A stretch of DNA of 59,820 nt, counting the filler, from a bacterium (GTDB taxonomy: Bacteria; UBP15; UBA6099; JAJRTR01), in assembly GCA_024278215.1 (NCBI GenBank). It is 3 parts of 3 records of this genome, joined end to end, with 100 filler letters (N's around TTAATTAATTAA, not from the genome) between each part and the next. Parts side by side here need not be neighbours in the genome. Positions count along the whole stretch, not along the records: positions 46,216 to 59,820 come from JAJRTR010000030.1; 2 more parts are not named here. One strand, written 5' to 3'. Below the pieces are notes generated by a model. It did not search any database. It was not told the origin of the DNA and saw only the letters and a list, made by a program, of their open reading frames with translations. A program made the translations under genes and the position numbers. Shown piece after piece: positions 899-59,487 of the stretch; position 1 is the stretch's first letter, and each line of letters opens with the position of its first letter.

Positions 899-941
899 GT
901 TCTTACCCCTTCTGTAATATAGTTTTGTTACTGAACATACT

Positions 942-1292: not shown

Positions 1293-1342
1293 ACTTTATA
1301 CCTCGTCTTCCTGTTTTTTGCATTTATACTGTTACGGTTTTC

Positions 1343-1708: not shown

Positions 1709-1757
1709 TTCCCGCATCCTCTCAAAACTTCGATTTATCACCCTGCTGTTAATATTT

Positions 1758-2138: not shown

Positions 2139-2179
2139 ATCCTGTTGCTCCTGTTCAAATACAATATATTTAATCCGGT

Positions 2180-4209: not shown

Positions 4210-4231
4210 ATTTGATGTTTTCGCGGCTTTT

Positions 4232-9496: not shown

Positions 9497-9648
9497 GCTT
9501 GCGATTATCCTTGTTTTTGATCTTTCCGGTCGAGCACATTTACCCGGATTTATTATTTCAGTTGCATGTGTTATATTTGAAATAATAACTAACCGCATAT
9601 TTCACCAATGCGCGGAAAAACTCTTCGAGATGTGCGCATGGGCAGGTA

Positions 9649-11412: not shown

Positions 11413-11441
11413 TTTTTTCTCACAGCGCCGACCGGCTGTTA

Positions 11442-12515: not shown

Positions 12516-12516
12516 A

Positions 12517-26578: not shown

Positions 26579-28074
26579 CAATACCGTTCAGTTAAGCGAA
26601 ATATGGCTGAAAAACAGGATAGGGTATCAAGAGAAAGGAGGACGGACGATGCCCTATTATGGACAGAGGAAACCGCGGGGAGAAGTCAAACTGACGGAGA
26701 TTATCAGCATGGGCGCTCTGGCGCGAGTTATTCCTGCGAAAGTTGTTGACGAGGCGGTGGAAAAACATGAAAGGAAGGAGACTCGAAATCGTTTACTTCC
26801 TGCGAGAGTAACGGCCTATTACATTATTCTGATGACGATATACAGTCATCTGGGATACCGGGAGATATTGCATGTGATGGTGGAGGGATTCAAAGCACTT
26901 TTCAAGGATCTGAAGGGCTGGCATGTGCCTCACAAATCTGCGGTCACGCAAGCAAGAGCGCGTTTAGGAGCCGAGCCGATGAAGGAACTTTATCGCAACA
27001 TAGTGAGGCCTGTCGCTAAAAAGGAAACAAAAGGGGCATGGTATCGTGGCTGGCGGCTGACAAGTTTTGACGGCACGACACTCGACGTCGCGGACACACC
27101 GGAGAATGAAGCAGCTTTCGGGCGACCTGGCAATGGTCGCAGCGATAACAAGAGCGCATACCCGCAGGTGCGTCTGGTCATGCTGTGCGAGCAGGGAACC
27201 CATGTTCTGGCTGATGTTGAATTCGGCAATCTGGCCACTGGAGAACAAAAAATGGCGCGCAGCCTGTTTCGTTCATTGGAGCCGGAAATGCTCAACCTTG
27301 CAGATCGTAATTTCTTCGGCTACAAGCTGTGGAACGAAGCCAGCGCCACGGGAGCGCAACTGCTGTGGAGAGTGAAGAAAAACTTGATACTCGAACCTGT
27401 GAAGACATTTGAAGACGGATCATTCACCGCATGGATCTATCCCAGCACAAAAGCGCGGCGCAAGAAACATAACGGAATACTTGTGCGGGTCATAGAATAT
27501 ACTATTAATGATTCCGGCCGCATGGACACAGAACCGAAATACCGCCTGATAACAACCATATTAAACCCTGACGACGCGCCCGCCCATGAACTGGCCTGCC
27601 TCTACGAACAGCGACAGGAAATCGAATTCACTTTCGACGAAATCAAAACACATCAGCGCGGCGCCGGCGTTGTGCTTCGCAGCAAAACGTCGCAAGGAGT
27701 TGTCCAGGAAATCTATGGCTACCTGCTCGCCCACTTTGCCATACGCAGCATCATGCACGAAGCCGCCCTTGCGCTGGATATCGATCCCGACCGCGTTTCA
27801 TTCACAAACACTATTCGCATCATCCGAAGAAAGCTTCAGCGGTTCCAGTCCATTTCCCCCCAGGCGGTGGGGTGATTTGCATCAGGAGATTATAGATGAA
27901 ATCGCACAGGAATTATTGCCGAAAAGAAGGCTTAGAATGAATCCGAGAGTTGTCAAAAGAAAAATGTCGGGGTATGCTCTGAAACGCCGGAAACACAGGA
28001 ATTATCCGCAACCGTCCAAGAGAATTCCGGATGCTGTGAAAATTGTCGGCGAGGTGCTTAACTGAACGGCATTG
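26579..28074 (+). mobile_element. IS4-family insertion sequence
   Basis: 19-bp terminal inverted repeats CAATACCGTTCAGTTAAGC / GCTTAACTGAACGGCATTG (1 mismatch) around a transposase. No clear target duplication. Confidence 0.9.
26649..27875 (+). CDS. IS4-family DDE transposase
   Basis: SAVTQARARLG, FDGT, ADRNF, Y..R..IE..F.E.K (YREK-like motif), LRSK...V.QE.YG. Confidence 0.93.
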   Translation: MPYYGQRKPRGEVKLTEIISMGALARVIPAKVVDEAVEKHERKETRNRLLPARVTAYYIILMTIYSHLGYREILHVMVEGFKALFKDLKGWHVPHKSAVTQARARLGAEPMKELYRNIVRPVAKKETKGAWYRGWRLTSFDGTTLDVADTPENEAAFGRPGNGRSDNKSAYPQVRLVMLCEQGTHVLADVEFGNLATGEQKMARSLFRSLEPEMLNLADRNFFGYKLWNEASATGAQLLWRVKKNLILEPVKTFEDGSFTAWIYPSTKARRKKHNGILVRVIEYTINDSGRMDTEPKYRLITTILNPDDAPAHELACLYEQRQEIEFTFDEIKTHQRGAGVVLRSKTSQGVVQEIYGYLLAHFAIRSIMHEAALALDIDPDRVSFTNTIRIIRRKLQRFQSISPQAVG

Positions 28075-31002: not shown

Positions 31003-32358
31003 TCACTTCTTATGCGACACCTTGTTCCAGGCGTCGAGTTCGAGCACCATATTCTCTTTTATTTCTCTGAGTTCCTCGTCAGAGAAATCCGTAAAGTTCA
31101 CAACGATCTGTTCACCCTGCTCGCCGAGTGAAAGAAGGAACTCTTCTTTATCGCCTATCTTACCCGCCTTCTGAGCAATATCGTACAATTCGGTGCCGGG
31201 ATAAGGAGTGGCGAAAAAAATGACTTCCGGCTGCAGGGCAATGGATTTGCAGAAATCTATTGTTTCCCTCACGGTTTCCATCGTCTCTCCGGGCAGTCCG
31301 GCGATAAAGGAGCAATCGGCGCGTCCCATAAGACGTTTCGTCATCAGTATGGATTCCGTCGCCTGTTCGACGGAGACCTTTTTTCTTATATTCTTAAGAA
31401 TCTTCGGGCTGCCGGATTCGATACCGTAAGCGATGTATATGCAGCCTGCTTCGCGCATCTTCAGGATCATTTCTTCGGTCATGAGGTTAGCGCGGCCCGC
31501 GCATCCCCATTCGATGTCGATATTCTCTTGCAACAGAATATCGCAGAAGTCATAAACATTTTTTTTATTGATGATGAAACAGTCGTCGGTGAAATGAAAG
31601 TATTGAATATCGTACTTGCTTTTAAGCAAAATTATTTCGTCGGCGATATTGCGCGCCGACCTGAAGCGATAGCCCGCTCCCATGAAATCGTGATAGCAGT
31701 ATATACATTTGTATGGGCAGCCCCTGCTTGATACCAGGTTCATCGAGCCGGGCGTCCCGGCAGCAGCTCCGCCGTCAACCCACTTGTTCATATTCACCGC
31801 GCCGATTGGATTATTGACATAAGTTTCCATCGGGAAAAGCTCCCAGCGCGGGAAAGGAAGCGTGTCGAGGTCTTTAATTATCCTGCGAGGCGGATTGGCG
31901 ACAGGAGCGCCCGATTCGTCGCGACGCCAGATACCGTCGACTTTCGACATGTCGCCGCCGCCCTCGAGTGTGTCCACGAGATCAAGTATTGTGTTTTCGC
32001 CTTCGCCGATGCACAGGTAGTCGACCGGATTGTTCGCCATGACGACATCAGGCGCTGAAGTGGCGCAGCTGCCGCCGAGTATTACCGGGCGGTCCGGGTG
32101 AATGGTTTTCAGCTTCGCAATCAGCTCTTTGAGCGTTTTATATATCGTTACAATGCCGCCGGTGCCGACGATGTCGTAGTCCGCGTTTTTTATGTAGTCC
32201 TCGAATTCATCGGGCGCCGGCCTCAGCGCGTTTGCATCGTAGACGTCGACTTCGTGACCGGCGTCGAGCAACACGGAAGCGAGATAGCCGAGCCCCGACG
32301 GGAAACAGTTGGGGGGTGCCCATTCCCTTATTACAGGGTGTATAAGAAGTATTTTCAT
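31003..32358 (-). CDS. Cobalamin-binding radical SAM protein
   Basis: N-terminal B12-binding domain (PSGLGYLAS, GEGE), SRGCPYKCIYC, GIESGS, PYPGT. Confidence 0.9.
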   Translation of the reverse strand: MKILLIHPVIREWAPPNCFPSGLGYLASVLLDAGHEVDVYDANALRPAPDEFEDYIKNADYDIVGTGGIVTIYKTLKELIAKLKTIHPDRPVILGGSCATSAPDVVMANNPVDYLCIGEGENTILDLVDTLEGGGDMSKVDGIWRRDESGAPVANPPRRIIKDLDTLPFPRWELFPMETYVNNPIGAVNMNKWVDGGAAAGTPGSMNLVSSRGCPYKCIYCYHDFMGAGYRFRSARNIADEIILLKSKYDIQYFHFTDDCFIINKKNVYDFCDILLQENIDIEWGCAGRANLMTEEMILKMREAGCIYIAYGIESGSPKILKNIRKKVSVEQATESILMTKRLMGRADCSFIAGLPGETMETVRETIDFCKSIALQPEVIFFATPYPGTELYDIAQKAGKIGDKEEFLLSLGEQGEQIVVNFTDFSDEELREIKENMVLELDAWNKVSHKK

Positions 32359-45512: not shown

Positions 45513-45914
45513 ATGAGTGTTGACGACCATAAAACCTGTACCGACAAAGAACGCATGACCACTAACGATCTACGTACACATCTGTCGAACGAACGTACAT
45601 TCCTTGCGTGGTGCCGCACAAGCATCGCGATAATCGCGTTCGCATTTGTCATAAAGCGTTTCGATTTTATCATAAATGCCGCGAGCAAAGGCACTATAGA
45701 AACAACGGCTGCATTGCATCACGAGTTGAATTACATCAGTCTCTTCGCTTTTGTCCTGGGCGGCCTGATCGTACTGATATCAGGCTACAGGTTCCTTGCT
45801 CTGAGAAAAATGATTCGCAGGGGCGAAATGTCCATATCGATATTCCCTGAAATCATGGTGATCGTTTCCATGGTCATCATAATAATCATGGTAATCGTTC
45901 TTATGTTCAGGTGA
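45513..45914 (+). CDS. DUF202 (YidH-like) membrane protein
   Basis: HLSNERTFLAWCRT motif; three TMs. Confidence 0.88.
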   Translation: MSVDDHKTCTDKERMTTNDLRTHLSNERTFLAWCRTSIAIIAFAFVIKRFDFIINAASKGTIETTAALHHELNYISLFAFVLGGLIVLISGYRFLALRKMIRRGEMSISIFPEIMVIVSMVIIIIMVIVLMFR

Positions 45915-46024
45915 AGCTATTTAATAACCGTTTCCGGACATTCCCACTACATTGAAATTGCCGGGAAACGGTAGGTGCTGTGGTAAACTCGGCCCGAAAA
46001 AACACACAGATGCTCCGACACAGC

Positions 46025-46114
46025 CTATTTCCTCTTATCGTTCTCTTGTATCTGTTTCATAATCTCATTGAAGCGTTCTTTGTATTCAGGGTGGTTTTTT
46101 AAGTTATTCAGTTC
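46025..46114 (-). CDS. 3' end of an unidentified gene truncated by the gap
   Basis: Open frame ELNNLKNHPEYKERFNEIMKQIQENDKRK* runs in from the contig edge. Confidence 0.4.
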   Translation of the reverse strand, partial: ELNNLKNHPEYKERFNEIMKQIQENDKRK

Positions 46115-46115
46115 A

Positions 46116-46215
46116 NNNNNNNNNNNNNNNNNNNNNNNNNNNNNNNNNNNNNNNNNNNNTTAATTAATTAANNNNNNNNNNNNNNNNNNNNNNNNNNNNN
46201 NNNNNNNNNNNNNNN
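46116..46215. other. Artificial contig linker
   Basis: N44-TTAATTAATTAA-N44. Confidence 0.97.
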
Positions 46216-48332
46216 ACGTGGAAGGCAACTACGACATTCTCAACTACGATGGATTCTTATGTATAGACAACGACGGCAACGCCTGCGTCGGAAGTACTGA
46301 TGGAACAATATACGCTGATGATTTTGTCTGTAATACCGGCAATTGTATAGATACTTCTGACCTGAACCTGTCAACTCTCACACGAGGCACGGGACTTACC
46401 GGCAGCAATTATAATGGATCTGCCGCCACAACCTGGGCCGTCAATTACGGAAGTACAGCCGGGACAGCAGTTGAAGGCAACAAAACACTGGGTATCACAG
46501 CCAATACCGGCATATCCGTGTCGGGCAGCCCGGTCACTCTGGGTACCGGCGGAAATATTACGGTTGGAGTCGATACCACCTGGTCAGATGGTCGCTATGT
46601 GAATGTTACAGGTGATACAATGACAGGCGCGCTGACGATGAGCGGAGCAGCCGCAGATATTACTTTCGACAATGCAGGCGGAAATATTACAACCGCCGGA
46701 GGTACAATCTCCGACAGCGCCGGCGATGTCACAGTAAATGATGCACTTGGAGTAACAGGGGCCATCACAGGATCGAGCACAGTACAGGGAACACGGTTAA
46801 TCTCAACCGTAGCAATCGGCACTGCGCCATTGACCGTCACATCCACCACGAAGGTAACCAACCTGAACGCCGACCTGCTCGACGGCCTCACATCTTCACA
46901 ATTCCTGCGAAGCGACACATCCGATGACTGGAACGGACTTATACAGGGACGGCAGGACGATAACCTGGCGGTCTCCGACGGCTATGTCTGTGTGGACAAC
47001 AACGGCGCCACGGCTGCCTCCTGCGCCGGAACTACGGACGGCACTGTTTACGCCGACGATTTTGTCTGCAACAGCGGGAATTGTATCAGTAGCGACGCGA
47101 TACCCGACATTTACGTTTTCAACACCAGCGACACAATGAGCGGCAGCCTGACTGTTCAGGATAATATATATGTGAACAATCCCGACTATGGGCAGGGGCT
47201 TGTGGGGAACTACGACTCGACGAAAATCCGGCTTGTCTACTCGATGGGCGCGGCCTACATGCTCTCCGCCGACGGAACGGCGCCCGGCAATCTCTACGGT
47301 ATCGCTTATACCCACACCAACTATACCGGCGGCGGAGCGAAGGCGGGGCTGGGACACCAGATGCTGATCATGGCCAACGGAGTCACCACAACAGCTATAG
47401 GAACCGGTATCTGGACAAATGGAAATATCACAACATCTACGGATGACAACCTCTACATAACCGACGGCTCGATCTGCGCAGACGATGCGGGCGGCACATG
47501 CGTGGGAAGCACGGACGGCACAGTTTACGCCGACGACTTTATATGCAACGGCGGCAACTGCCTTGGTGCCGCGGATATAGCCGACGGACTTGGAGCCAGC
47601 GAAATCGCCGATATCTATGTTTTCAATACCAGCGACACCATGTCCGGCACACTCGCCGTGGCCGGCACACTGTCCGCGAACAATGGTATCAGTGTCGATG
47701 GAAACACAGTCATCGACAACGGCGCGGGCTGGCATCGCTCTTATGGGGCCACCGGCTGGTACAACGGCACATACGGCGGCGGCTGGTACATGACGGACAC
47801 TACTTATGTCAAGGTATACGGTGGCAAGAAAATCTGGGCGCCGAGCTATTACGACTCGGACAACACGGCCCGCTATGTGGACCCGAGCGGCAACACGTAT
47901 CTGAACCGGCTCGTGAGCGTTGACGATACGACAAAGGTAACCAACCTCAACGCCGACATGACGGACGGCTACCACGTCAGCACTACAGCAAACGCCGCCA
48001 ATACGATCCCGGTTCGCAACGCGAGCGGTTATTTGTACCTAGGCTGGATCAACACAACAAGCGGCAGCGCCGGCACGACCACGCCGACCAGGATTTACGG
48101 ATCGTATGACAGCTTTATAAGATATTACACACCCGCCAACTTTAAAACAGCTATGGGCACCACCATGTCTTGTCATATAAGAAGCTTCACAGTCGGGTCG
48201 ACTTCCAACTGCAACGCCGGCACGGCGGTTGTCGGCACGATGGACACAGGTTACAACGTGGCGAATCCCGGGAACTTCACCGGCGGCCCTACAAGCGGCT
48301 ACATGATCTGTTGTCCGACATTGCCATGGTAA
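46216..48332 (+). CDS. 5'-truncated fibre/adhesin-like protein (PilV/tail-fibre-like motifs, Cys-rich repeats)
   Basis: Gly/Thr-rich; YVNVTGDTMTG and TKVTNLNAD fibre motifs; GWYNGTYGGGWYMTD motif resembling the conserved region of shufflon PilV; Cys-containing C-terminus. Confidence 0.7.
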
Positions 48333-48404
48333 TCATCTGTTTATCTTCTGTATAGTTTTGCAATTGCTCAGTGTCGGACATTCACAGGAAAGGCGGCAGA
48401 GAAG

Positions 48405-48758
48405 GTGAACTCTTTCGCGGAAAAGTACGACAAAGTAATTCCTCTCGATACGGATATATACCCGTTGGAGAGCATACAGCTTGCAGCCTGCGGTTTTCTG
48501 GACGAAGCTTTCTTTCATCTATTCCCTGAAAGCGGCAGCGGCAGACTCGGCAAGGTCAACGCGGCAATCAAGGCGAGAGCCGGCGGCGACATGAATACAG
48601 ATGAAATATGCGGAAGGTTCGTTAACGAACTTAACAGGCAGAGCTTGAGGATAGCGCTCGACAGGATAAACATAAAAGTGAGAACGCAGATAGTAGGCCG
48701 CGCGCTCGCCTCGGCGATTGCCCCCGCGGAGAAGGAATCCCGGGAAGACGCGATATAA
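48405..48758 (+). CDS. hxsD: His-Xaa-Ser system protein HxsD-like
   Basis: IYPLESI..A, F.NEL..QSLR...VRTQI..RAL resembles the HxsD LLNDYxLRE region; upstream of hxsB. Confidence 0.75.
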   Translation: MNSFAEKYDKVIPLDTDIYPLESIQLAACGFLDEAFFHLFPESGSGRLGKVNAAIKARAGGDMNTDEICGRFVNELNRQSLRIALDRINIKVRTQIVGRALASAIAPAEKESREDAI

Positions 48759-48804
48759 AGTCCGCGGATGGACGGGGACGCCGGAAAAATCCACAGGAGT
48801 TGTT

Positions 48805-49017
48805 ATGACGACAGCAAGAACAGTAACACTGGACGCAAGAATATATAAACCCAGCGCTGTAAAAGCGACGATCAAAGATTATTCGGATGTATCGGACATA
48901 AAGATGGAAAAAGACGGTCGCACAATCATAGTAACCTTCGAGAGCTGGCCCGAGGAGTACGAAGACACTATCGAATTCGAGTTCTGCAACTACACCCTAT
49001 GGAAGATGAGGAACTAG
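48805..49017 (+). CDS. Second, short HxsD-like protein
   Basis: ATG 48805 with AGGAG RBS; IY...AVK..I.DY, EFCNY.L; stop abuts the hxsB start. Confidence 0.7.
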   Translation: MTTARTVTLDARIYKPSAVKATIKDYSDVSDIKMEKDGRTIIVTFESWPEEYEDTIEFEFCNYTLWKMRN

Positions 49018-50472
49018 ATGTACACCGAAGTTATCGACAGAGCGCCCGCGATAAGGAAAGACCTGGGTTTTTTCCGTTTCAGGCGATACAGCGCGAATGA
49101 ATATATACTGACAAACGACCTTGGCGATTATATCTCCATGCGTAAGGAAGATTTTCAAAACCTGGTGCATGGCGGAGAGATGCCGGACGGAGCGATAGTA
49201 GAGAAACTGACTTCGATGGGTATACTGCGCCGTGAAGAGTTCGCCGTCCCGGAGAATATCCACAGGTACAGAAACAAGAACAGGTTTCTTTTTCAGGGCA
49301 CGCTTCTGCATATAATAGTCGGCACACTCCGGTGCAACCTGAAATGTTCATACTGCCAGGCGAGCGCGCAAAAAGGTGCGGAAAAGCAATTTGACATGGA
49401 TGAAGAAACCGCGAAGAGAGTAGTGGACGCCATCTTCCAGAGCCCCGGACCGAAAGTGGACATCGAGTTCCAGGGCGGGGAGCCGCTGGTCAACTGGCCG
49501 ATTGTCGAATACATAATCAACTACGCGAACAGGAAATCGCTCGTCGAGGATAAGGACGTTTTCTTTTCGCTGGTCTCGAATCTCGTTTCCATCTCGGACG
49601 ACCAGCTCCAGTTTCTCGTGGACAACGAAGTGGGAATATCAACATCTATAGACGGCCCCGAGAAGTTGCACGACCTGCACAGGGGAAGCGGCAGTTTCAA
49701 AAAAACGACGGCCAATCTGAAAAAATGTGTGGAAACATATAAGGAAAAGTATGTGTTGAGGCTTCCCGGCGCGTTGTTGACGGCAACTACGGATTCACTT
49801 GCTTACCCGGTGGAAATCGTAGACCAGTACGTGGAACTCGGTCTGGAATCCGTGCACCTGCGGAAAGTCAGCCCCTTCGGAATGGCCTCGAAGAGCATGG
49901 CGAAATTCGCTTATACGGACAGCGAGTTCCTCGAGTTCTATGAGAAAGCTTTTGACAGAATAATAGAGCTGAACAAAGAAGGAACGCGCTTCACTGAAAG
50001 GGCTGCTTATCTGTTCCTTTTAAAGATGATGACGGACTATCCCGTGAACCACATGGACTGCCGCAACCCGTGCGGCGCGGGGATAGGACAGGTCGCCTAC
50101 AACTATAACGGCAATGTTTATACCTGCGACGAAGGCCGCATGATGAGTATGATGGGGCGTGAGGATTTCAAACTGGGCAACGTCATGGAGAATACATTTG
50201 AAGAGATGATGGACAACGATGTCGTCAGAGCCATGTGCGCCTCTTCATGCCTGGAGAGTCTGCCCGCCTGTAATCTTTGTGCATACAAACCCTATTGCGG
50301 AGTATGTCCCCTGTACAATTTCGCCGTGGAAGGCTCCCTTTTCGGCATGGAACACTTCAACGAAAGATGCAGGATCAACAAAGGTATTCTGGACATTATT
50401 ATGAAGAAAGCCAGGGACCCTGAAGTATTAGATATTTATACGAGTTGGATAAACGACATTCTGATAACCTGA
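49018..50472 (+). CDS. hxsB: His-Xaa-Ser system radical SAM/SPASM maturase HxsB
   Basis: LHIIV.TLRCNLKCSYCQAS, IEFQGGEPL.NW, PCGAGIGQ.AYNY.G.VYTCDEGRM, C..CAYKPYCG.CP. Confidence 0.88.
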   Translation: MYTEVIDRAPAIRKDLGFFRFRRYSANEYILTNDLGDYISMRKEDFQNLVHGGEMPDGAIVEKLTSMGILRREEFAVPENIHRYRNKNRFLFQGTLLHIIVGTLRCNLKCSYCQASAQKGAEKQFDMDEETAKRVVDAIFQSPGPKVDIEFQGGEPLVNWPIVEYIINYANRKSLVEDKDVFFSLVSNLVSISDDQLQFLVDNEVGISTSIDGPEKLHDLHRGSGSFKKTTANLKKCVETYKEKYVLRLPGALLTATTDSLAYPVEIVDQYVELGLESVHLRKVSPFGMASKSMAKFAYTDSEFLEFYEKAFDRIIELNKEGTRFTERAAYLFLLKMMTDYPVNHMDCRNPCGAGIGQVAYNYNGNVYTCDEGRMMSMMGREDFKLGNVMENTFEEMMDNDVVRAMCASSCLESLPACNLCAYKPYCGVCPLYNFAVEGSLFGMEHFNERCRINKGILDIIMKKARDPEVLDIYTSWINDILIT

Positions 50473-50538
50473 CACAGGTTGATTATTAAGGAAAAGCATG
50501 TTTTAATTATTATAGGATGGAACAGGGGTGACCCAATA

Positions 50539-50844
50539 ATGAGAAAAAAAGAAGAAAAGAACAAACTGCCGAAGCCGGATAAGAGCATCAAGACATTCCT
50601 TTCATCCGAGGACGGGAAAGTTACGAAAAAGGGCCTGGTCGCCGGGGCGATCGTAATGGCGATAGTCGGCATGGCTACTGAAGCCTACGGGCATACCAGC
50701 CACAGCAACAGCCGGTTTCAGAACCTGCCTTCCCTGGACTATGGCCGCCACATATCACACAGTTCACATGGCTCGCACGGCTCGCACGGTTCTCATGGCT
50801 CGCACGGTTCACACGGCTCGCACGGTTCGCACGGTTCATGGTAG
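50539..50844 (+). CDS. His-Xaa-Ser repeat precursor peptide (HxsA-like), 101 aa
   Basis: ATG 50539 with AGGGGTGA RBS; basic leader, hydrophobic segment, HTSHSN...HIS-HSS-(HGS)8-W. Confidence 0.88.
   Translation: MRKKEEKNKLPKPDKSIKTFLSSEDGKVTKKGLVAGAIVMAIVGMATEAYGHTSHSNSRFQNLPSLDYGRHISHSSHGSHGSHGSHGSHGSHGSHGSHGSW
50749..50838 (+). repeat. Coding 9-nt tandem repeat (ten His-Xaa-Ser triplets)
   Basis: CAY-GGY-TCN units with synonymous third-position variation. Confidence 0.95.
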
Positions 50845-50890
50845 GACCGTGAAGGTTCAAAAAGGCTTTACGGCATTTGTTTAAGAACAT

Positions 50891-50955
50891 AAAACGGCGC
50901 TTGTCCTGTAACTACCGGACGCAACCGGATTTACAGGACAGGTTCCGTTTTTTTT
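50891..50955 (+). terminator. Long hairpin plus T-run after the precursor gene
   Basis: AAAACGG..CTTGTCCTGTAA..CCGG / CCGG.TTTACAGGACAGG..CCGTTTT, continuing into a T8 run. Confidence 0.7.
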
Positions 50956-51115
50956 CATACAATAACTTAACTTGTGCGTTTTTATAAAAGATAGTAGTAG
51001 AATTTATGGGGACACGATCCGGAACTAAAGGTCAAACTTCAGTCATGTCCCCAAAATTCTTGCAATATATCTGAATTCGTACAAGCAGTAATAATACAAG
51101 AGACTCATAAGTCTG

Positions 51116-52087
51116 GTGACGCTTTTGGACCGCATTGACGTAAAAGTCGGTTATTTATGCAACAACTCGTGCCTGTTCTGTGTCCAGGCCCACAACAAGG
51201 GCAAGGGCAGGGACAAGAGCACGGAAAAAATAATAAGTATACTTGAGGAATCGCGGAAGAAGTACGAAGCGGTGGTTCTCACGGGCGGAGAAGTCTCCAT
51301 CCGAGACGACGTCTTCGATATAGTCGCCGCCGCAAGGGACCTCGGTTACAAAAAAATCCATATCCAGTCGAACGGCAGAAGATTCTATTACAGGGATTTC
51401 TGCGTGAAAATGATAGAATCCGGAGCGACCGAATTCGGACTTGCTCTGCACGGCCATATCCCCGAACTGCACGACTATCTCACCCGCGCGCCGGGAAGCT
51501 TTCTCGCCACGCTGCGCGGCATCCGCAACCTGGTCGAACTCGGCCAGTCCGTCATGACCAACACGGTCATCACGAAATCCAATTACCGCCACCTTCCCGC
51601 TATTGCGCAGGTTCTTGTAAGCGCCGGCGTTTTCCAGTATCAGTTCGCTTTCGTACATGTAGCGGGCAACGCGAAAACCTACGCCCCGGCGGTTGTACCC
51701 AGAAAAACGCTTGTGGCTCCTTACGCGAAGCGTGGACTCGATGTCGGGCGGGCCAGAGGCGTGGCTGTGATGACGGAGGCGATACCCTACTGCTTTATGC
51801 GGGGCTACGAGCAGCACATCGCCGAAAAGATAATTCCTGAAACAAAAATATTCGACGCGGAATTCGTGATAGAAAGCTACACTGAAGTACGCAGAAACCA
51901 GGGGAAGGCCAAGGGCCCGCCGTGCGAGGAATGCGACATGCGCAAGATTTGCGAGGGGCCGTGGCGTGAATACCCGGAGATGTTCGGCTGGGATGAATTC
52001 AAACCGGTAAAATGGCACTCCGTCACCGGCGGCGCCGACATCGCGTTCAGGGAGAAAAAAACCGCCCCGCCCCGGAAGGGCGCATAG
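51116..52087 (+). CDS. Radical SAM protein (HxsC-like paralog 1)
   Basis: CNNSCLFC, TGGE, QSNGR, HD.LT..PGSF, IPYC, C-terminal CEECDMRKICEG. Confidence 0.85.
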   Translation: MTLLDRIDVKVGYLCNNSCLFCVQAHNKGKGRDKSTEKIISILEESRKKYEAVVLTGGEVSIRDDVFDIVAAARDLGYKKIHIQSNGRRFYYRDFCVKMIESGATEFGLALHGHIPELHDYLTRAPGSFLATLRGIRNLVELGQSVMTNTVITKSNYRHLPAIAQVLVSAGVFQYQFAFVHVAGNAKTYAPAVVPRKTLVAPYAKRGLDVGRARGVAVMTEAIPYCFMRGYEQHIAEKIIPETKIFDAEFVIESYTEVRRNQGKAKGPPCEECDMRKICEGPWREYPEMFGWDEFKPVKWHSVTGGADIAFREKKTAPPRKGA

Positions 52088-52094
52088 ATAACCG

Positions 52095-53063
52095 ATGGCC
52101 GAACAGGGATACATACAACTCACACGCGACTGCAACCAGAACTGCCGCTTCTGCTCGAACCCCGCCAACAGTAAGCGCATCGACATCGACCGCGCCGTCG
52201 GGCTGATCAACAGTTTCATCGAGCGCGGCTACAGTGGGATCATCTTCACAGGCGGCGAGCCCACACTCTGCCCGTTCCTGCCGGAACTCATAGCCCACGC
52301 GTCGCGAAAAGGTATCCCGAACCGCATTATAACCAACGGCCAGAAAATCTGTGACCGCTCATATTTCGAAACCCTCTACGAAGCCGGCCTGCGGAATGTG
52401 AACATTTCCATATATTCCGTCAGGGACGATGTCCAGGCGTTTCTTTCCGGCAACCCGGATTCGCTGAAAAACATCGCCGGTGCCCTGAAAACGCTGGATG
52501 TCTTTAAGGGTGATGTACAGACCGTGGTCAACACGGTGATCAACAAATATAACAGCGATCACCTGTCGGAAAACGTGCGCTGGGTGCTCGATAACGCGCC
52601 CTTCGTGCCCCATTTCGTGTGGAACAACCTTGACCCGGGAAACAGTAAGTGCAAAGAAAATCCCGACACAGTCCCGAAGCTGAACGACTTCCAGCTCGAA
52701 TTGTACAAAGCCGTGGATCACGTTCTCAAATCCGGGCGCACATGCCGGATCGAGCGGGTGCCCCTCTGTTACATGACGGACTTCGAGCATCTCTCCACGG
52801 AGACAAGGAAGATTGTAAAAAAGGAAAAAACCACGACCTACTTCCTGGACGAAAAGGAACTCTTTTCGCAGGACTCGTATCAGTACGACAAAGCGGATTG
52901 CTGCTCCGCCTGCTTCCTCGAGCGGATATGCGCGGGGCTGTTCGAGATGGATGTATATTATTCTTCCGACGAACTGTACGCCTGTTTTATCGACAGCGAA
53001 AAGATAACAGAGAAAATCCTCCACGGAACAACCGTGAAGGCCCCCGGCGGGATTATGACATAG
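52095..53063 (+). CDS. Radical SAM protein (HxsC-like paralog 2)
   Basis: CNQNCRFC, TGGEPT, ITNG, VPLC, C-terminal CSACFLERICAG. Confidence 0.85.
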   Translation: MAEQGYIQLTRDCNQNCRFCSNPANSKRIDIDRAVGLINSFIERGYSGIIFTGGEPTLCPFLPELIAHASRKGIPNRIITNGQKICDRSYFETLYEAGLRNVNISIYSVRDDVQAFLSGNPDSLKNIAGALKTLDVFKGDVQTVVNTVINKYNSDHLSENVRWVLDNAPFVPHFVWNNLDPGNSKCKENPDTVPKLNDFQLELYKAVDHVLKSGRTCRIERVPLCYMTDFEHLSTETRKIVKKEKTTTYFLDEKELFSQDSYQYDKADCCSACFLERICAGLFEMDVYYSSDELYACFIDSEKITEKILHGTTVKAPGGIMT

Positions 53064-53070
53064 AAACTGC

Positions 53071-54108
53071 GTGGAACCAATGAAAAGAAAAACCGGCGAC
53101 GGCTACTACGATGTACCGCCGCACGCACAGGACGATAAAAAGAAACACATCGAGATCAGCCTCGGCATGGCCTGCAACAACAAGTGCATATTCTGCCTGA
53201 ATGTCGGCCCGCGCAAGATCGTACCGTTCGAGCAGGTACGTAAAGAAGCGGCGGAATACGCCGGGGCCGGCTATAATTCCATCGGCCTCATCGGCGGCGA
53301 CCCGACCGTATATCCCCGCATTTCGGAACTCGGTCGACAAATCAAAGCCATGGGCTACAAACATATTCACATGATCAGCAACGGACGCCGCTTCAGCGAC
53401 ATCGAATTCCTGGATGAATTGATCGAGGCCGGTTTCAACAGGTTCTCAGTCTCCATCCACAGCCACCTGCCCGAAGTCGAGGACAAACTCACACAACGGC
53501 CCGGAAGCCACGCCCAGAAAATTCAGGGACTCAAAAATCTGGTCAGGCGATCAAGAGAGGGCGCGTTCCGCGAACGCGTCCCGATAAATATTGTTATGCA
53601 CAAGTTGAATATCGATAATCTGGCCGCGAGTGTCAGGTTCTTTTCCGACATCGGCATTACGGATATGAGGCTTCTCATCATACGACCCGAGGGCTACGCT
53701 CTGCAACATTTCGACCTTCTCGTGCCGCGCCTCACACGGGTGAGGGAGCGGCTGCCGGCCGTGATCCGCGCGGCACACCTGCGAAAACTCAAGGTCATGA
53801 TCGACCCGCCGCCCTACTGCCTGTTCTACGACATACCCGGTTTCAACCGGATGGTAGCGCGAGACTATCTCGATTATGTGATCTCCGACGCGCCGGACAG
53901 GGCGGTGCGCGAAACTTTTTCATGGAACGAATACAGGTTGAAGCAAAAAGTGAAAGACCCCGGCTGCAACAACTGTTGCTTCAACGGAATATGCGAGGGC
54001 GTCTGGACCGGCTATGTAAAGGTATTCGGGTTCGATGAATTCGTACCCGTCACGGACGAAATGCTGTCGGACATTCCCGCGCCGGGCGCCACAGGAAAAA
54101 CGGAGTAA
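53071..54108 (+). CDS. Radical SAM protein (HxsC-like paralog 3)
   Basis: CNNKCIFC, GGDPT, ISNGR, LTQRPGS, PPYC, C-terminal CNNCCFNGICEG. Start is GTG 53071 or ATG 53080. Confidence 0.85.
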   Translation: MEPMKRKTGDGYYDVPPHAQDDKKKHIEISLGMACNNKCIFCLNVGPRKIVPFEQVRKEAAEYAGAGYNSIGLIGGDPTVYPRISELGRQIKAMGYKHIHMISNGRRFSDIEFLDELIEAGFNRFSVSIHSHLPEVEDKLTQRPGSHAQKIQGLKNLVRRSREGAFRERVPINIVMHKLNIDNLAASVRFFSDIGITDMRLLIIRPEGYALQHFDLLVPRLTRVRERLPAVIRAAHLRKLKVMIDPPPYCLFYDIPGFNRMVARDYLDYVISDAPDRAVRETFSWNEYRLKQKVKDPGCNNCCFNGICEGVWTGYVKVFGFDEFVPVTDEMLSDIPAPGATGKTE

Positions 54109-54109
54109 A

Positions 54110-55261
54110 ATGGAGATAGATTTCAGTGACAGCGTCATCAAGTTGTTCTCCAGTGTTTCGCTGGTCGTTTTTCTGTTTCTCAGCTACCATGTCATAAAAG
54201 AGGACCTGGCATCCCAGAAAATCCCGAACAAACTCATTCTCAAATTCATGAAAATCGGCTTGTTCATGTGTGTGACTCTTTTGGTCTACGGTCTACTGAA
54301 AGACAATCAGTTCGCTGTCAATTATGCAAAGATACTGTTGCTTAATGCCGCCGTTGCCCTGGTTTGTGGATACTTATTGTGGTACTTCGACCTGTTCAGT
54401 CCGGGCGACTCGAAATATTTCGCACTGGCGGCGCTTCTTGTTCCACTCGAGTCATATACATACCAGTACGTGCCCGGTTTCCCCGCATTGCTTATTCTGA
54501 TAAACGCCTATGTCATAGCATTTCTCCTGATGTTCGCCTACACGCTTTATGTTTTGGCCGGGCGAGCTGTAACCGCCGTCGCCGCCGGTGATCTCTCGAA
54601 AGAGAATATCAGGCGAGTCGCCGACAGCGTAATGGAGAAACTCAAAGCGCCGGCATTCTGGGTCAGTCTCGCCGGTATGCTCCTCTACATGGCTTCCATA
54701 CTCCTGATAATGAGAGACTCGATCAACGTGATCCAGGGCTTCTTCAATTTCTCGCCGGGCCATTTTACCCTGATCACTGTTCTGATACTATACTTCGCCG
54801 GCAGCCGGCTTCAGGGCCTTATGAATGATAATAAAATAGTGGCCCGGGCCGCATATTTCGTTTTCGCGGGCGTAATATCCTTTCAGTATTTTATCCTCCG
54901 GCAAAATGTCTTTCACATGATCGCGGAAACTGTCGCCGCCTCCTTTTTCATGATCGTCTTCATCCCGATCGCGAAATATGTTATCGATTTATATTACGGA
55001 ACAATGGAGAACAATAAGGTTGAATATATCCGAATGGGTATCGTTCTGACGGAAGAGACAGTAGAGAAATTCCAGACGGACTGGGGTGTCGAGGTGCCTG
55101 CCCTTGTTCCCCTATCGGACAGTCAGTCGCAATCAGTCAAAGACAACATCCCCAACAACGAAAAAATATGTACGGTCAAGCACATAACATTCGGCCCGTT
55201 TATCTTTATCGGCGCGATGTTTACTTTCTTGTTACGGCACACGATCATTCACTATCTATAG
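54110..55261 (+). CDS. A24-family (prepilin/preflagellin) aspartic peptidase-like membrane protein
   Basis: EDLASQKIPN (first Asp), FSPGDSKY (GxGD-like second Asp), C-terminal ITFGPFIFIG; ATG 54110 lies 1 nt after the upstream stop. Confidence 0.7.
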   Translation: MEIDFSDSVIKLFSSVSLVVFLFLSYHVIKEDLASQKIPNKLILKFMKIGLFMCVTLLVYGLLKDNQFAVNYAKILLLNAAVALVCGYLLWYFDLFSPGDSKYFALAALLVPLESYTYQYVPGFPALLILINAYVIAFLLMFAYTLYVLAGRAVTAVAAGDLSKENIRRVADSVMEKLKAPAFWVSLAGMLLYMASILLIMRDSINVIQGFFNFSPGHFTLITVLILYFAGSRLQGLMNDNKIVARAAYFVFAGVISFQYFILRQNVFHMIAETVAASFFMIVFIPIAKYVIDLYYGTMENNKVEYIRMGIVLTEETVEKFQTDWGVEVPALVPLSDSQSQSVKDNIPNNEKICTVKHITFGPFIFIGAMFTFLLRHTIIHYL

Positions 55262-55358
55262 CAATTCGCGCCATCTTCGTAATTGCCCCGGCAGCTTCAC
55301 GGCAAAACATATCACGAACGCGAACGCATGTTCCGGCCTTACGAGAGCGGCTTTTCGC

Positions 55359-56891
55359 TCAATCACTGTTTTTTCCTGTGCCGGTATCGGCCGGGATAAG
55401 GCTGATCAAGGCGTAATAATAATTGAAAATATTCTCGGAAAACAACTCCCGTGGCGCAAACTTGCTGAAAACCTTCGAGCATATCTCCTTCCGGCCGGTC
55501 GCGCATTCCATCTCGAATACAACAACTTTACACCTGCGATGTTTCTCCATGAACGCGCCATCCAGCAACTGTGTTATCTCGTAATTCGGGTTGTCGGTAT
55601 ACGTCATTCCTATGGAAGGATTAACAGAAAAAACGGAACACTTATCAACCACTTTCGGAAGACGATCCGCAATGAAATCGTCCTGCGCCTCCGCGAAATC
55701 CCTCAGGACGACAAGACTCACATTAAACGACGAAAAGAGAAAGACTGCCAGACAGAGCGTGACCAGGCCGTTTCTTACAGCAATGCTTTTTGTCACGTCA
55801 AGAAGCCAATCGGCGGTTATTCCGAAAAAGAGAATTAACGGAATAGTCGCCGGCAGCATAAACCTCGGGAAATCCCCCAGGGGGAGATGAATGTCGAGAA
55901 GACTTATCGCGAGTATTGAAACAAAAACGAAAAAGAAAAGTGGGCGGGAAACACCGCAGCGACGACCGAGAAACACAGGCGCGACGAATAACGGGATAGA
56001 GACAAAAAACGGGATGTATTGATTCGAAAACAGGAAAATAATATTAGTCTTAACGACACCGGGATAACCACCCGGTGGAAGCGCGAATGCACTTCTGTAC
56101 ACAGGTGGAAGAACAAAAATCAGAGCAGCAATCAGTGCGGCTCCGGCCAGGGCCGCAAGTATCTTTTTGAGGTCGTGCGGACCGGCGGCAAGAAGAACAA
56201 TCAGGATAAAGGCGGCTGTATACGCGTTGCGAGGCTCGAGCAGGATAGAAAATACTATTGCCGAAAAGAGACCCGCCCCCGATAGTGCGTCTTTATTCCT
56301 CAGGTACAGAAACAAAAATGTGAATGTGATGCACAGAAACAGCAAATCCGCGGTTTCCGTGGTAGCGTTTCCGGAAAGAATCACATTGAGCGGGAGCACG
56401 GAAGCCGCGAACGACGCGAAAAGCGCAGTGCGCGCACTGCCCGCCGCCGCCATCGCCATGATGAAAACCACAGGGATGCACAAAACCCCCAGAACAGAAT
56501 TCAGCGTGAACAGGACATTCGGCGAATACCTGCCCGTCAGCCGCATCGCGGCGGCGCCCATGAATGGGAACCCGGTGGCGTAAACGGGAGGCTGCCTGTC
56601 TTCACATTTTTCAAATGTTCCAGCCGTGCAAACCGAGAAATCGCCTTCCCCCGCGATCATCCGCGCAATATTGTTGATTTCATACTCGACATAAAACACC
56701 TTGAACCTGTGTGGACTGTGGTCGAACCGAAACCATATCCCGAGAATAATTGTTGCCGCGAGAAGCAGGATGAAAACCGGCTTCAGCTTTTCTCCCACTC
56801 GCAGAGCGGCGGGTACCCCGACAATAAAAAGCGCCACCGCCGCCGATAAACACAATACGTGCAGGATAAGCAGTAAGAAATTGCCGGTCAT
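55359..56891 (-). CDS. GT-C (ArnT/PMT-like) membrane glycosyltransferase
   Basis: RF after TM, acidic loop YVEYE, ATGFPF, LP...LS....TE, RFMLP; many TMs. Confidence 0.65.
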   Translation of the reverse strand: MTGNFLLLILHVLCLSAAVALFIVGVPAALRVGEKLKPVFILLLAATIILGIWFRFDHSPHRFKVFYVEYEINNIARMIAGEGDFSVCTAGTFEKCEDRQPPVYATGFPFMGAAAMRLTGRYSPNVLFTLNSVLGVLCIPVVFIMAMAAAGSARTALFASFAASVLPLNVILSGNATTETADLLFLCITFTFLFLYLRNKDALSGAGLFSAIVFSILLEPRNAYTAAFILIVLLAAGPHDLKKILAALAGAALIAALIFVLPPVYRSAFALPPGGYPGVVKTNIIFLFSNQYIPFFVSIPLFVAPVFLGRRCGVSRPLFFFVFVSILAISLLDIHLPLGDFPRFMLPATIPLILFFGITADWLLDVTKSIAVRNGLVTLCLAVFLFSSFNVSLVVLRDFAEAQDDFIADRLPKVVDKCSVFSVNPSIGMTYTDNPNYEITQLLDGAFMEKHRRCKVVVFEMECATGRKEICSKVFSKFAPRELFSENIFNYYYALISLIPADTGTGKNSD

Positions 56892-57276: not shown

Positions 57277-59487
57277 ATGGTAAGAGAAGCTTCCCCAGCA
57301 AAAAACATTCTGAAAAAATATGCCTGGATAATTATTATTTTACTTGCGATATTTCTTAGAACAGTCTACATGAATTATAACAATATCGGTCATTATATTA
57401 TCCCGTCTATGATAACGGCCCTGGATATCGCGGAGGGCAAAAGCTTTCCTCTCGAGGGTCCTGTTCTCGGCGAATTCAACGCGAAACACGGACCGGCTTC
57501 GTACTATCTTTTCGCGTTGCCTATTCTTTTTGATCACAACCCGCTTAATATCTTTTTCTTTATCGTGTTGCTTAATGTCATATCCGTATACGTGGTATAC
57601 AGGATAGGAAAAGATTTTTTTTCGGTGAATGCAGGCTTGATTGCGGCGCTTATCCATGCTGTGCAGCCCAATCTTGTAGTCTTCTCTCGCAATATTACAG
57701 ACGACGCGCTTGTGCAAATCTTTGTCGCGCTGATTTATTACTGCTTTTTTTCTATTATATCGAACAATAAAACACGTCTTTCCTGGGTTGTCCTGCCGGT
57801 CGCTTTCGCGCTGGGAATGCAATTGCATTTCCAACTCGTGGTTACTCTCTTTTTCGTTGTCCTGCTGTTTCTGTTTTTCAAACCTGCCGTGCCTCAAAAG
57901 CAACTGGGGATCGGTATTGCTATCGCCCTGCTGTGCCTCTCACCCCAGATATGGCACGATCTCACCATAAGCAACACACACTTTCTCTCTTTCTATTACG
58001 CAGGCTTGGACTTCCTGAAAAATAATGTAAGCATACCGGATAACCAGATGAACAGCAGGGGCAACATTTTCAGCAACTGCTTAATCGTCTTCGGCGTTCT
58101 GTTCTACTACTATCTCGCGGCGCTGGTTTTCGTGACCGCCGGAATGGTCAGGGAGAAAGTCGCGAGCGGCACGTGGTTCAACTTTGAAAATCAAAAGATA
58201 CTGTCTCTGCTGATCTTTTCCATCCCCTCACTTCTGGTGTTTTCCAATTACGGCAGCCAGATTTTCAACCGGCATCATGCCGCCTTCACGCCTATGGCTA
58301 TATTGATCGGGATCGCGCTGAGCGGCATGTTTTCCACCTCGCTCAAGGGTAAAAAAACATACGTGAGAATACCGGCGTTGTTCGCCAGGTCGGCGGTCAT
58401 GTTGTTTTTCGCCGGTATTATTCTTTTATACATCGTCAAATCATACGGCATTGCATTAATTAATGTGAATCCTGCTCCCGGCAAATACTTTAATGTGTTC
58501 GGTCGATTCATGTGCATGGATCAATACCGCAATGATTGCGAAGAAGTATTGGAGAGCGACAGTGTAGACTTCTGGCAGGACACATATTATTACCGGAGAA
58601 AGCAGTTTGAAATATTTTTTAACGACTTTGGATTAGATCGTAAAACACTTCTTGCAAATGTGCATGGGATGCCGTATTTCAGAATGTTTGGCGACGATGG
58701 GTATCTTTTCCGCACATTGCCGCAGGGCAAGTCGACAGATGCGGCATCATTCCATTACCTGATAGCAGAGGCGGACACGCTAAAATCTTTTATCGACCGA
58801 ATGAAAATCATAAAAACAGTGCGTCTTTCCTCGCTTGTAGCGCTTAAATACAAGTCGTATATCGATTATTCGGGTTTAAAGTATATGGATATAAACGATG
58901 GACAAACAATAGTGTCCGGCCCCGGCGATATGCAATGGATCAATAGAGCAGCCCCCTTGATGCAGTTGTCCGATATATGTTGCGGTCATGCCTTTTTCGG
59001 TGTTTTTCAGCACTATATATTGTGGCTGCATGAATCGTTGGAGTATCCGCACTGGAGCAGGTTCGAGCGTGGTGTGGACAGGTCGATAAACCTTGGGATA
59101 ACCGATAGTTCACTTGATACTACCAACCATTACCACTGGATCAGGGCATGGAACCAGGGCGGCAAGATAGTTAAGGGATCAATAGGGGAACCGGATGATT
59201 TTTCGTCGATGCTGCTGGTCGTCGAGGTGCTTTTCAAGGATATACGGGAAACGCTTGTCGGGCCGGGCCGGGATGTCGAGATACACTTGTATTTCAACAA
59301 TAAAGAGATACAGACAGCGGAGGTGGGTTACAGCGGAAATATCTTCTTCGGAGAGAGTTACAGACATTATTACATTATCGACAAGAAGTATTTCGGCGAC
59401 AGTAACGCCTTTACATTTACAATAAACGATCCACATACGGAAGAAAGATACGCGATCGACGTATACGGCATTGCGCTGAAAGACTGA
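57277..59487 (+). CDS. GT-C (ArnT/PMT-like) membrane glycosyltransferase with large C-terminal soluble domain
   Basis: LAIFLR, FPLEGP, HGPASYYL, GLIAALI.AV.P.LV.FSR, QLHF. Confidence 0.72.
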   Translation: MVREASPAKNILKKYAWIIIILLAIFLRTVYMNYNNIGHYIIPSMITALDIAEGKSFPLEGPVLGEFNAKHGPASYYLFALPILFDHNPLNIFFFIVLLNVISVYVVYRIGKDFFSVNAGLIAALIHAVQPNLVVFSRNITDDALVQIFVALIYYCFFSIISNNKTRLSWVVLPVAFALGMQLHFQLVVTLFFVVLLFLFFKPAVPQKQLGIGIAIALLCLSPQIWHDLTISNTHFLSFYYAGLDFLKNNVSIPDNQMNSRGNIFSNCLIVFGVLFYYYLAALVFVTAGMVREKVASGTWFNFENQKILSLLIFSIPSLLVFSNYGSQIFNRHHAAFTPMAILIGIALSGMFSTSLKGKKTYVRIPALFARSAVMLFFAGIILLYIVKSYGIALINVNPAPGKYFNVFGRFMCMDQYRNDCEEVLESDSVDFWQDTYYYRRKQFEIFFNDFGLDRKTLLANVHGMPYFRMFGDDGYLFRTLPQGKSTDAASFHYLIAEADTLKSFIDRMKIIKTVRLSSLVALKYKSYIDYSGLKYMDINDGQTIVSGPGDMQWINRAAPLMQLSDICCGHAFFGVFQHYILWLHESLEYPHWSRFERGVDRSINLGITDSSLDTTNHYHWIRAWNQGGKIVKGSIGEPDDFSSMLLVVEVLFKDIRETLVGPGRDVEIHLYFNNKEIQTAEVGYSGNIFFGESYRHYYIIDKKYFGDSNAFTFTINDPHTEERYAIDVYGIALKD

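Follow-up and report, generated by a model that had tools for sequence, protein, structure and literature searches.

The His-Xaa-Ser (Hxs) systems are represented in the literature by the canonical HxsDBCA of Escherichia coli, an antiphage system that blocks the entry of phage DNA (Li et al., Nat Commun 2026, PMC13128918). We compared with it a cluster of eight genes at positions 48405–55261 of a 59,820-nucleotide (nt) stretch, the window, which is the whole of the DNA analyzed here and consists of three joined parts of the bacterial assembly GCA_024278215.1. The E. coli report (PMC13128918) describes HxsA as N-terminally processed and modified by +8 Da on its SHRSS motif, and mature HxsA as periplasmic with a peptidoglycan-binding domain. 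HxsC bound HxsD; HxsB, HxsC, and HxsD were all needed for HxsA processing; and the N-terminal cleavage itself was called “non-canonical” and left unexplained. By the same account 99.7% of these systems (HXS) occurred in Pseudomonadota, >99.8% comprised four proteins, and 99.6% had them in D-B-C-A order; the words peptidase and protease, and the phyla of the loci described below, do not appear in the main text. HxsB and HxsC are also discussed in a network study of radical S-adenosylmethionine (SAM) enzymes (PMC9062424). A first-pass annotation of the window had treated Hxs function as uncharacterized, a view that the E. coli work has made outdated.

Besides the canonical families, NCBIfam holds curated models for HxsA3 (NF038309), HxsA4 (NF038313), HxsC4 (NF038332), and HxsD_rel (NF038315). 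We conclude that the window cluster is a real, conserved variant of the known Hxs system. Its assignment to the Hxs type is very probable, and the best overall explanation, to which we give a probability of roughly 0.55, is an expanded Hxs maturation system with a precursor of the HxsA3/HxsA4 type and a protease-processed envelope effector.

Gene content, order, and conservation

The cluster consisted of eight genes, all co-oriented on the + strand, with starts refined from the sequence, in the order HxsD-like, HxsD_rel, HxsB, HxsA4-type precursor, three HxsC-like radical SAM enzymes (rSAM1, rSAM2, and rSAM3), and an A24-like protease. The first-pass annotation had called eight co-oriented genes here with short gaps except after the precursor, and both points held: the gaps were 46, 0, 66, 271, 7, 7, and 1 nt. 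Its wider call was likewise borne out: the system is of the His-Xaa-Ser type, its radical SAM enzymes number four and its HxsD-type proteins two, and an A24-like membrane protease is linked to them. Scoring against the Hxs family hidden Markov models (HMMs), which it had suggested as a check, gave a divided outcome under the curated cut-offs used for all NCBIfam and Pfam scores in this study: HxsB, HxsD_rel, and HxsA4 passed, and HxsD, HxsC, and HxsC4 did not. The annotation would have counted as refuted had the last four genes not co-occurred with hxsAB elsewhere; they did accompany hxsB in a related locus (L001) and among the 79 loci of a neighborhood survey. For this survey one genome per species was scanned with an alignment of the HxsB subclade of the window; at least 600 stretches matched, 592 were confirmed, and the best 80 of the at least 600 yielded 79 HxsB loci (1.36 Mb).

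L001, whose HxsB was 74% identical to that of the window, had the same gene order, and its eight proteins were 56, 68, 74, 80, 78, 76, 73, and 59% identical to their window counterparts in that order. Recurrence of this order with proteins 56–80% identical shows that the genes did not come together by chance. HxsB and the protease had accession numbers exactly five apart in L001 and in one further metagenome-assembled genome (MAG), a spacing that fits the window gene order and suggests the arrangement in that MAG as well. The genes are those named above and the whole cluster is conserved in at least one other genome. More widely, multiple HxsC-like paralogues and the protease family are recurrently linked to hxsB in many uncultivated lineages and in Clostridia. 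L001 also contained an additional 613-amino-acid (aa) HxsC-like radical SAM gene downstream of the protease (9195–11036 of that locus) with no counterpart in the window.

The 271-nt gap 3′ of the precursor contained a terminator-like hairpin followed by U8 (~50891–50955, +), detected by RNA folding. The segment 50845–50960 folded at −46.7 kcal/mol (z −7.2), a value equalled by 0/200 shuffles; the hairpin was not picked up by a simple consensus terminator scan. Given this strong hairpin and U8 after the precursor, the cluster reads as two transcription units predicted from sequence features, with hxsD-like, hxsD_rel, hxsB, and the closing precursor in the first, and the three radical SAM genes and the protease in the second. 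A weak promoter-like site lay at 50935–50963, and the count of such sites in the region was not above shuffled expectation. The only RNA family match in 45800–55700 was OxyS at 24.9 bits (gathering score 75), and no riboswitch was found there.

Three divergent HxsC-like radical SAM enzymes

The second unit began with rSAM1 (51116–52087, +, 323 aa), rSAM2 (52095–53063, +, 322 aa), and rSAM3 (53071–54108, +, 345 aa). Together with HxsB, these matched Pfam Radical_SAM (PF04055) at 67.5–79.5 bits (gathering score 29.5), and all four enzymes of the cluster carried CxxxCxxC, which places them in the radical SAM superfamily. This motif started at residues 15, 13, and 35 in rSAM1, rSAM2, and rSAM3, respectively, and a second, C-terminal Cys motif was present in each (CxxCx5C at residue 270, CCxxCx5C at residue 269, and CxxCCx4C at residue 299).

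None of the three reached the cut-off of HxsC4 (500 bits) or HxsC (267.9 bits). HxsC4 was the best NCBIfam match of rSAM1 (161.5 bits, with HxsC at 107.2) and rSAM3 (149.0 bits, with HxsC at 80.8), and HxsC was that of rSAM2 (68.7 bits, with HxsC4 at 58.3). The first-pass annotation had spoken of a doubled radical SAM count; a doubled HxsC this is not, since none of the three passes the HxsC equivalog cut-off. The pairwise identities among rSAM1, rSAM2, and rSAM3 were 24–31%, which makes them old paralogues and not recent duplicates. They were 21–32% identical to annotated or model-passing HxsC of a Nostoc plasmid and of Clostridium drakei, in alignments that started at approximately residue 115 of HxsC; rSAM1–3 are therefore without the N-terminal domain of HxsC (~110 aa).

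Phylogenies were inferred with FastTree (147 rows) and with IQ-TREE in quick mode (141 rows, six long-branch rows having been dropped). The rSAM2 clade contained 18 rows from several phyla, had support of 100 in both trees, and was present in 17/79 loci. The rSAM3 clade (7 rows, support 98) was reproduced in both trees and occurred in 6/79 loci. For rSAM1 no clade beyond the window–L001 pair was starred in either tree or with a 64-row subset, and the rSAM1 group was counted in 23/79 loci via BLAST identities of 46–57%. At least two HxsC-like genes were found in 36/79 loci, at least three in 26/79, and none at ≥70 bits in 22/79. The rSAM1, rSAM2, and rSAM3 types stood together in L001 alone among the 79 loci, and a commoner trio (9 loci) had another clade, absent from the window, in the place of rSAM3.

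HxsB and the two HxsD-type proteins

HxsB (49018–50472, +, 484 aa) matched TIGR03978 at 499.5 bits (E 8.8e-150, cut-off 370) and thus belongs to the family. Its Pfam matches to Radical_SAM (68.4 bits) and SPASM (22.7 bits, above 21.5) are those of a radical SAM/SPASM maturase. It was 36% identical to HxsB of the Nostoc plasmid. HxsB relatives at E ≤ 1e-60 numbered 4854 among 8000 candidates scored. The window protein grouped with few of them, in a subclade comprising 12 clusters at ≥55% identity; the next relatives were ≤48% identical.

The first gene (48405–48758, +, 117 aa) had been named hxsD. Its relationship to that family stood, at 33.0 bits against TIGR03976 (E 5.7e-8), and its membership did not, the cut-off being 50; we refer to it as HxsD-like. 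The second gene (48805–49017, +, 70 aa) is a member of HxsD_rel, with 56.3 bits against NF038315 (cut-off 41). Its start was placed at the ATG at 48805, which AGGAG precedes, and an alternative longer TTG open reading frame (ORF) runs from 48718. HxsD-type matches were found in 50/79 loci and HxsD_rel-type matches in 28/79. Both occurred in 23/79 HxsB loci and NCBIfam has a curated HxsD_rel model, so the pairing is not special. The AF2 model of the HxsD-like protein (predicted local distance difference test, pLDDT, 90.1) had a strand-helix-strand-strand arrangement followed by a long helix and matched no PDB fold at E ≤ 0.001. Most HxsD homologues of loci L003–L076 (alignment A4) were extended at the C-terminus by a stretch containing a DDPLGIAVPWEEK-like motif, and the window HxsD-like protein was without this extension.

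The precursor

The precursor (50539–50844, +, 101 aa) scored 68.8–69.6 bits against HxsA4 (NF038313, cut-off 55), which identifies it as a tandem HxS substrate, and had no match to the original HxsA model TIGR03979 at E ≤ 0.01. Its start was placed at the ATG at 50539, with an alternative longer ORF from 50479. The protein divided into a basic leader (residues 1–31, 50539–50631; 11 K/R vs 5 D/E), a hydrophobic segment (residues 32–51, 50632–50691), and a core (residues 52–101, 50692–50841) with 11 HxS motifs, mostly H-G-S, 12 His, and only 2 K/R. The core ended in (SHG)8-W, and the DNA contained a 9-nt repeat in 8.9 copies at 50758–50837. Pfam returned a weak Collagen match over the repeat region and no peptidoglycan-binding domain.

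The fetched loci yielded 45 related precursors, of which 41 were aligned together with that of the window (n = 42). All but one of the 42 matched both HxsA4 and HxsA3 (E ≤ 0.001) and 5 matched the original HxsA model, so that curated models already cover this precursor type. The leaders followed the consensus K-x-P-x-x-K-K-x-x-K-x-F-L-x-S-E-E-G-K-I-x-K-K and then a hydrophobic stretch, and the motif FLxSE(E/D)GK(I/V)xKK was conserved across the alignment. At the junction the window and L001 read ...TKKG/LVAG..., and only these two had G before the hydrophobic segment. Three Myxococcota precursors, in L017 (12989–13387), L022 (11511–11855), and L050 (16841–17224), had a twin-arginine-like LTRRD(F/L)L replacing the VTKKG of the window, and this motif at that position leads us to read the N-terminus as an export or processing signal. 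No A24-like protease was found within the fetched stretches of these three loci. A protein search with the leader alone gave one match (P0276, 75% identity) and is little informative because short ORFs are rarely predicted.

The composition of the core also fits a different product, the one favored in the first-pass annotation, a released His-rich peptide resembling ribosomally synthesized and post-translationally modified peptides (RiPPs) that binds metal as a metallophore or buffer, with the extra radical SAM enzymes adding cross-links or epimerizations that shape the metal site. Twelve His in a 50-residue core, the (SHG)8 tract with almost no basic residues, the leader-core layout, the terminator after the precursor, and the lack of defense context in the window all suit such a peptide. 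However, no transporter, metal-uptake gene, or metal riboswitch was found in or beside the cluster, the precursor has a hydrophobic signal or anchor and not a typical cleavable RiPP leader alone, and the sole characterized member of the superfamily, as described in the E. coli report, is an antiphage protein effector (PMC13128918). We regard a metal-binding peptide as unlikely and favor an Hxs effector matured for the envelope.

A candidate divergent A24-like membrane protease

The last gene (54110–55261, +, 383 aa) encodes a candidate polytopic membrane aspartyl protease of the GxGD type. Its ATG lies 5 nt past GGAG, and an alternative longer ORF from 54035 overlaps rSAM3. Against Pfam Peptidase_A24 (PF01478) the 383-aa form scored 24.9 bits (E 2.9e-5) and the long-ORF form 22.6 bits, both below the gathering score of 26.5. 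The A24-like call therefore rests on family-level evidence: 40/47 aligned family members matched Peptidase_A24 at E ≤ 0.01 (best 1.6e-9), and residues D32, D100, and K102 were invariant in 47/47. The conserved motifs were D..GKI.NK and (S/A)GD(A/S)K, with D100 in SPGD in the window and in SAGD in the consensus. D32 and D100 supply the two Asp of A24 enzymes, the second in a GD motif, and from this resemblance we infer that they form the catalytic pair.

The AF2 model of the protease (pLDDT 87.1, predicted template modeling score 0.79) showed additional helices and, at the C-terminus, a small soluble part. Its fold search of PDB returned no match at E ≤ 0.001; the top hit was a weak one to FlaK (3s0x_B; probability 0.80, E 0.93, target-normalized TM-score 0.47, 144 columns). 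The sequence profile of the family found nothing relevant in PDB at E ≤ 10, and no NCBIfam model matched the protease. Its nearest ESM Atlas clusters carry Peptidase_A24. Five close relatives, 45–66% identical, were present in a set of 5.8 billion proteins, and among representatives there were 447 relatives at E ≤ 0.001 and 68 at E ≤ 1e-10, most of them ~370–400 aa and matching over their full length. We accept “A24-like” for a divergent subfamily, outside the family by the curated threshold, as the sequences and models suggest. The first-pass use of the term was sound at the family level and exceeded what the window protein itself supports at 22.6–24.9 vs 26.5 bits.

Linkage of the protease to Hxs genes

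The protease family was present in 19/79 HxsB loci by its family profile. It abutted a same-strand Hxs gene in 18 of these 19 and lay 1.4 kb off in the remaining one. The surveyed loci were in unclassified MAGs, Candidate Phyla Radiation (CPR) bacteria, Omnitrophota, Elusimicrobiota, Myxococcota, and Bacillota. Linkage was facultative, with a protease beside 10/23 rSAM1-type, 6/17 rSAM2-type, and 1/6 rSAM3-type genes. It was tightest with the radical SAM clade nearest canonical HxsC, at 8/9 with the ninth locus cut off.

These counts bear on whether rSAM1–3 and the protease are a separate adjoining pathway, the protease acting on another substrate such as pilin-like proteins. The strong terminator between the two units, the type II secretion/type IV pilus parts with four N_methyl pilins in the window (554–5935), and the lack of a protease at many loci with rSAM1- or rSAM2-type genes are all in keeping with this. 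Yet it was their position no more than 10 kb from HxsB, in many phyla, that brought both the HxsC-like paralogues and the protease to notice. The protease directly adjoins Hxs genes in nearly all loci that have it, and in C. drakei its neighbors are HxsD_rel on one side and a bona fide HxsC (317 bits vs 267.9) on the other. Its weak Peptidase_A24 match, length of ~380 aa, and extra C-terminal part also make it unlike housekeeping prepilin peptidases by score and length. A separate pathway is thus improbable to us, and we consider it likely that the protease belongs to the Hxs system.

Proposed maturation and function

In the expanded Hxs maturation system that we favor, HxsB and the three HxsC-like enzymes would modify the core of the precursor in the cytoplasm, the latter three one after another or each at sites of its own, and the two HxsD-type proteins would act as adaptors. 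The precursor would then insert into or cross the membrane via its hydrophobic segment. On the cytoplasmic side of the membrane, the GxGD protease would cut off the N-terminal leader close to the dibasic ...VTKKG/LVAG... junction. The predicted end product is a modified His-rich effector in the envelope. We put cleavage of the precursor by this protease at about even odds.

The effector might act as a phage barrier by analogy with E. coli HXS, the least certain step and one that we hold only tentatively. Defense genes around three protease-bearing Bacillota loci speak for it. Restriction, Lamassu-like, SoFic, and PtuA-like genes flanked these loci, which accounted for 7/10 PADLOC matches among 124 flanking ORFs from 13 loci. 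A broader proposal, which we consider possible and somewhat doubtful, is that the A24-like protease is a dedicated leader peptidase of radical SAM-modified HxS effectors, which would give prepilin-type peptidases a new non-pilin substrate class and supply a candidate activity for HxsA cleavage. The multi-paralogue clusters, widespread in CPR, Omnitrophota, Elusimicrobiota, Myxococcota, and Clostridia, would then make diversified envelope effectors (phage or metal) by combinatorial radical SAM chemistry, anchored by a pilin-like N-terminal helix.

Several results weigh against the favored explanation. As given above, the HxsD-like protein, rSAM1–3, and the protease all score below the curated cut-offs of their closest families, and the protease model has no significant PDB match. 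Outside the window and L001, the aligned precursors keep the dibasic motif and continue with D, S, N, A, K, or Q, which is not the pattern of classical prepilin sites. The protease was absent despite at least 1200 nt of remaining sequence beside 13/23 rSAM1-type, 7/17 rSAM2-type, and 4/6 rSAM3-type genes, and the window is without the clade nearest canonical HxsC, the sole clade tightly linked to the protease. The second-closest HxsB (L002, 60% identity; region 9366–13000) was accompanied by HxsD_rel and then by a B12-binding radical SAM gene and housekeeping (glycine-cleavage) genes; L002 had no HxsC-like gene and no protease, and no HxS precursor was found within 10 kb. HxsD as a leader binder resembling a RiPP recognition element (RRE) or PqqD was considered and is not supported, the best fold matches being weak ones to RNA polymerase chain K subunits (E 0.02, TM ~0.5). 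For the antiphage role in particular, PADLOC gave 0 specific matches on 30 window proteins, with generic similarity of the radical SAM core to pVip, and found no specific defense-gene context in the flanking ORFs of L001 and nine other non-Bacillota loci. With only 2 K/R in the core, the proposal that E. coli HxsA binds DNA electrostatically also transfers poorly.

Both expanded clusters and this protease family are thus found repeatedly in numerous lineages other than Pseudomonadota. HxsB-centered clusters are common in uncultivated phyla and Clostridia, often with several old HxsC-like paralogues replacing HxsC, and about a quarter of the sampled loci have a dedicated A24-like membrane protease in the operon. 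The E. coli study left open the HxsA-cleaving activity, the radical SAM chemistry, and the reach of the systems beyond Pseudomonadota (PMC13128918), and the present clusters bear on each. The protease is a concrete, testable candidate for the HxsA-type processing step, and the clusters form a natural series of enzyme combinations for sorting out which radical SAM enzyme does what. Should the protease prove to act on these precursors, a substrate class unrelated to pili would be added to the A24 family.

Surroundings of the cluster

Just upstream of the cluster (46218–48332, +) was a gene for a 704-aa protein with 16 Cys and without an obvious signal peptide. It had repeated C..D..G..C.G.TDGT.YADDF.CN.GNC-type motifs, two TKVTNLNAD..DG motifs, and a CCPTLPW tail. 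This protein may be an accessory of the Hxs system. One could go further and view the cluster as making a structural or adhesive surface component that works with it, and its neighborhood offers some grounds for this: in L001 the gene immediately preceding hxsD encodes a homologue with 38% identity, the L003 cluster is preceded by a related fragment (73% over a short match), and envelope and glycosylation genes neighbor the window cluster. The large protein occurs, however, in only 2/79 loci and matched no family in Pfam, NCBIfam, PADLOC, or PHROGs, which leaves it with no functional tie to the cluster. We consider a surface component of this sort, in place of a role in defense or metal handling, improbable. 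PHROGs also gave no matches on three other unassigned window ORFs.

Immediately downstream were two large polytopic glycosyltransferase candidates of the PMT_2 type (ArnT-like) at 55359–56891 (−) and 57277–59487 (+), the second of which also weakly resembles Agl23. The type II secretion/type IV pilus cluster at 554–5935 (−) included T2SSF, T2SSE, and its four small N_methyl proteins, and the window as a whole showed no housekeeping prepilin peptidase. Two adjoining radical SAM/SPASM genes (11442–13575, −) lay within a polysaccharide-type cluster with LPG_synthase_TM, DUF2304, GT2, sulfotransferase, GNAT, epimerase, and DegT aminotransferase genes. A B12-binding radical SAM protein was encoded at 31003–32358 (−), with a weak PADLOC match to PDC-M51A (E 1.2e-14). 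An IS4-family transposase (Nterm_IS4 and DDE_Tnp_1; 26649–27875, +) stood between sugar-modification genes and a low-GC stretch. The window also contained LolA-like genes, a weak DUF7541 match, and a TATA-like AT-rich gap. The gap and the weak Agl23 and DUF7541 matches had raised the idea of an archaeal origin, which was set aside in view of the N_methyl pilins, T2SSE and T2SSF, the LolA-like genes, and relatives that are bacterial MAGs.

Comparison with known systems

Three features distinguish the window cluster: three divergent HxsC-like paralogues for HxsC, a minimal effector of the HxsA4 type, and an operon-linked A24-like protease. None of these was found described in the searchable literature, nor was any paper there on a radical SAM enzyme, a prepilin peptidase, and a precursor peptide together. 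The eight-gene architecture was found in no searchable paper; the supplementary tables of rare organizations in Li et al. could list such variants.

Canonical HXS and the window cluster share an HxsB-type SPASM maturase, HxsD-type proteins, HxsC-related radical SAM enzymes, and a tandem His-Xaa-Ser substrate with an N-terminal export signal, which is processed in E. coli (PMC13128918). Canonical HXS has HxsC, whereas the window has three paralogues instead, none a bona fide HxsC, and the D-B-C-A order contrasts with D-D′-B-A-C′-C″-C‴-protease. The effector of E. coli is larger, at 214 aa, and combines five basic repeats with a peptidoglycan-binding domain, whereas that of the window has 101 aa and few basic residues. 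The window adds HxsD_rel and the A24-like protease, and no such protease is mentioned in the main text on canonical HXS (PMC13128918). Canonical systems are nearly confined to Pseudomonadota by that account, and the window type lies outside this phylum. Among the NCBIfam variants the precursor passes HxsA4 and the second gene passes HxsD_rel; rSAM1 and rSAM3 match HxsC4 best, yet with 161.5 and 149.0 vs 500 bits they are not HxsC4.

The protease resembles Peptidase A24 enzymes (PilD, FlaK, and PibD) in its two Asp motifs and its Pfam signal, and FlaK is its top, weak fold hit. In the precursor, its putative substrate, a basic stretch at the N-terminus leads straight into a hydrophobic helix. 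The protease is unlike A24 enzymes in its score below gathering, its ~380 aa, its extra helices, and its C-terminal soluble part. To our knowledge, the A24 enzymes described so far depend on a small residue at −1. The putative substrates of the window protease are radical SAM-modified His-repeat proteins and not pilins, and their −1 position is not conserved as G/A.

The locus of Clostridium drakei SL1 (L077, NZ_JIBU02000005.1) has the order HxsA3, HxsD, HxsD_rel, A24-like protein, HxsC, HxsB. It differs from the window in having one bona fide HxsC (317 bits vs 267.9), a different gene order, a 150-aa precursor, and a position beside defense-type genes. Like the window, it combines an HxsD and HxsD_rel pair with a precursor of the same leader type, and a member of the protease family (HMM E 1.4e-43) lies within its Hxs operon.

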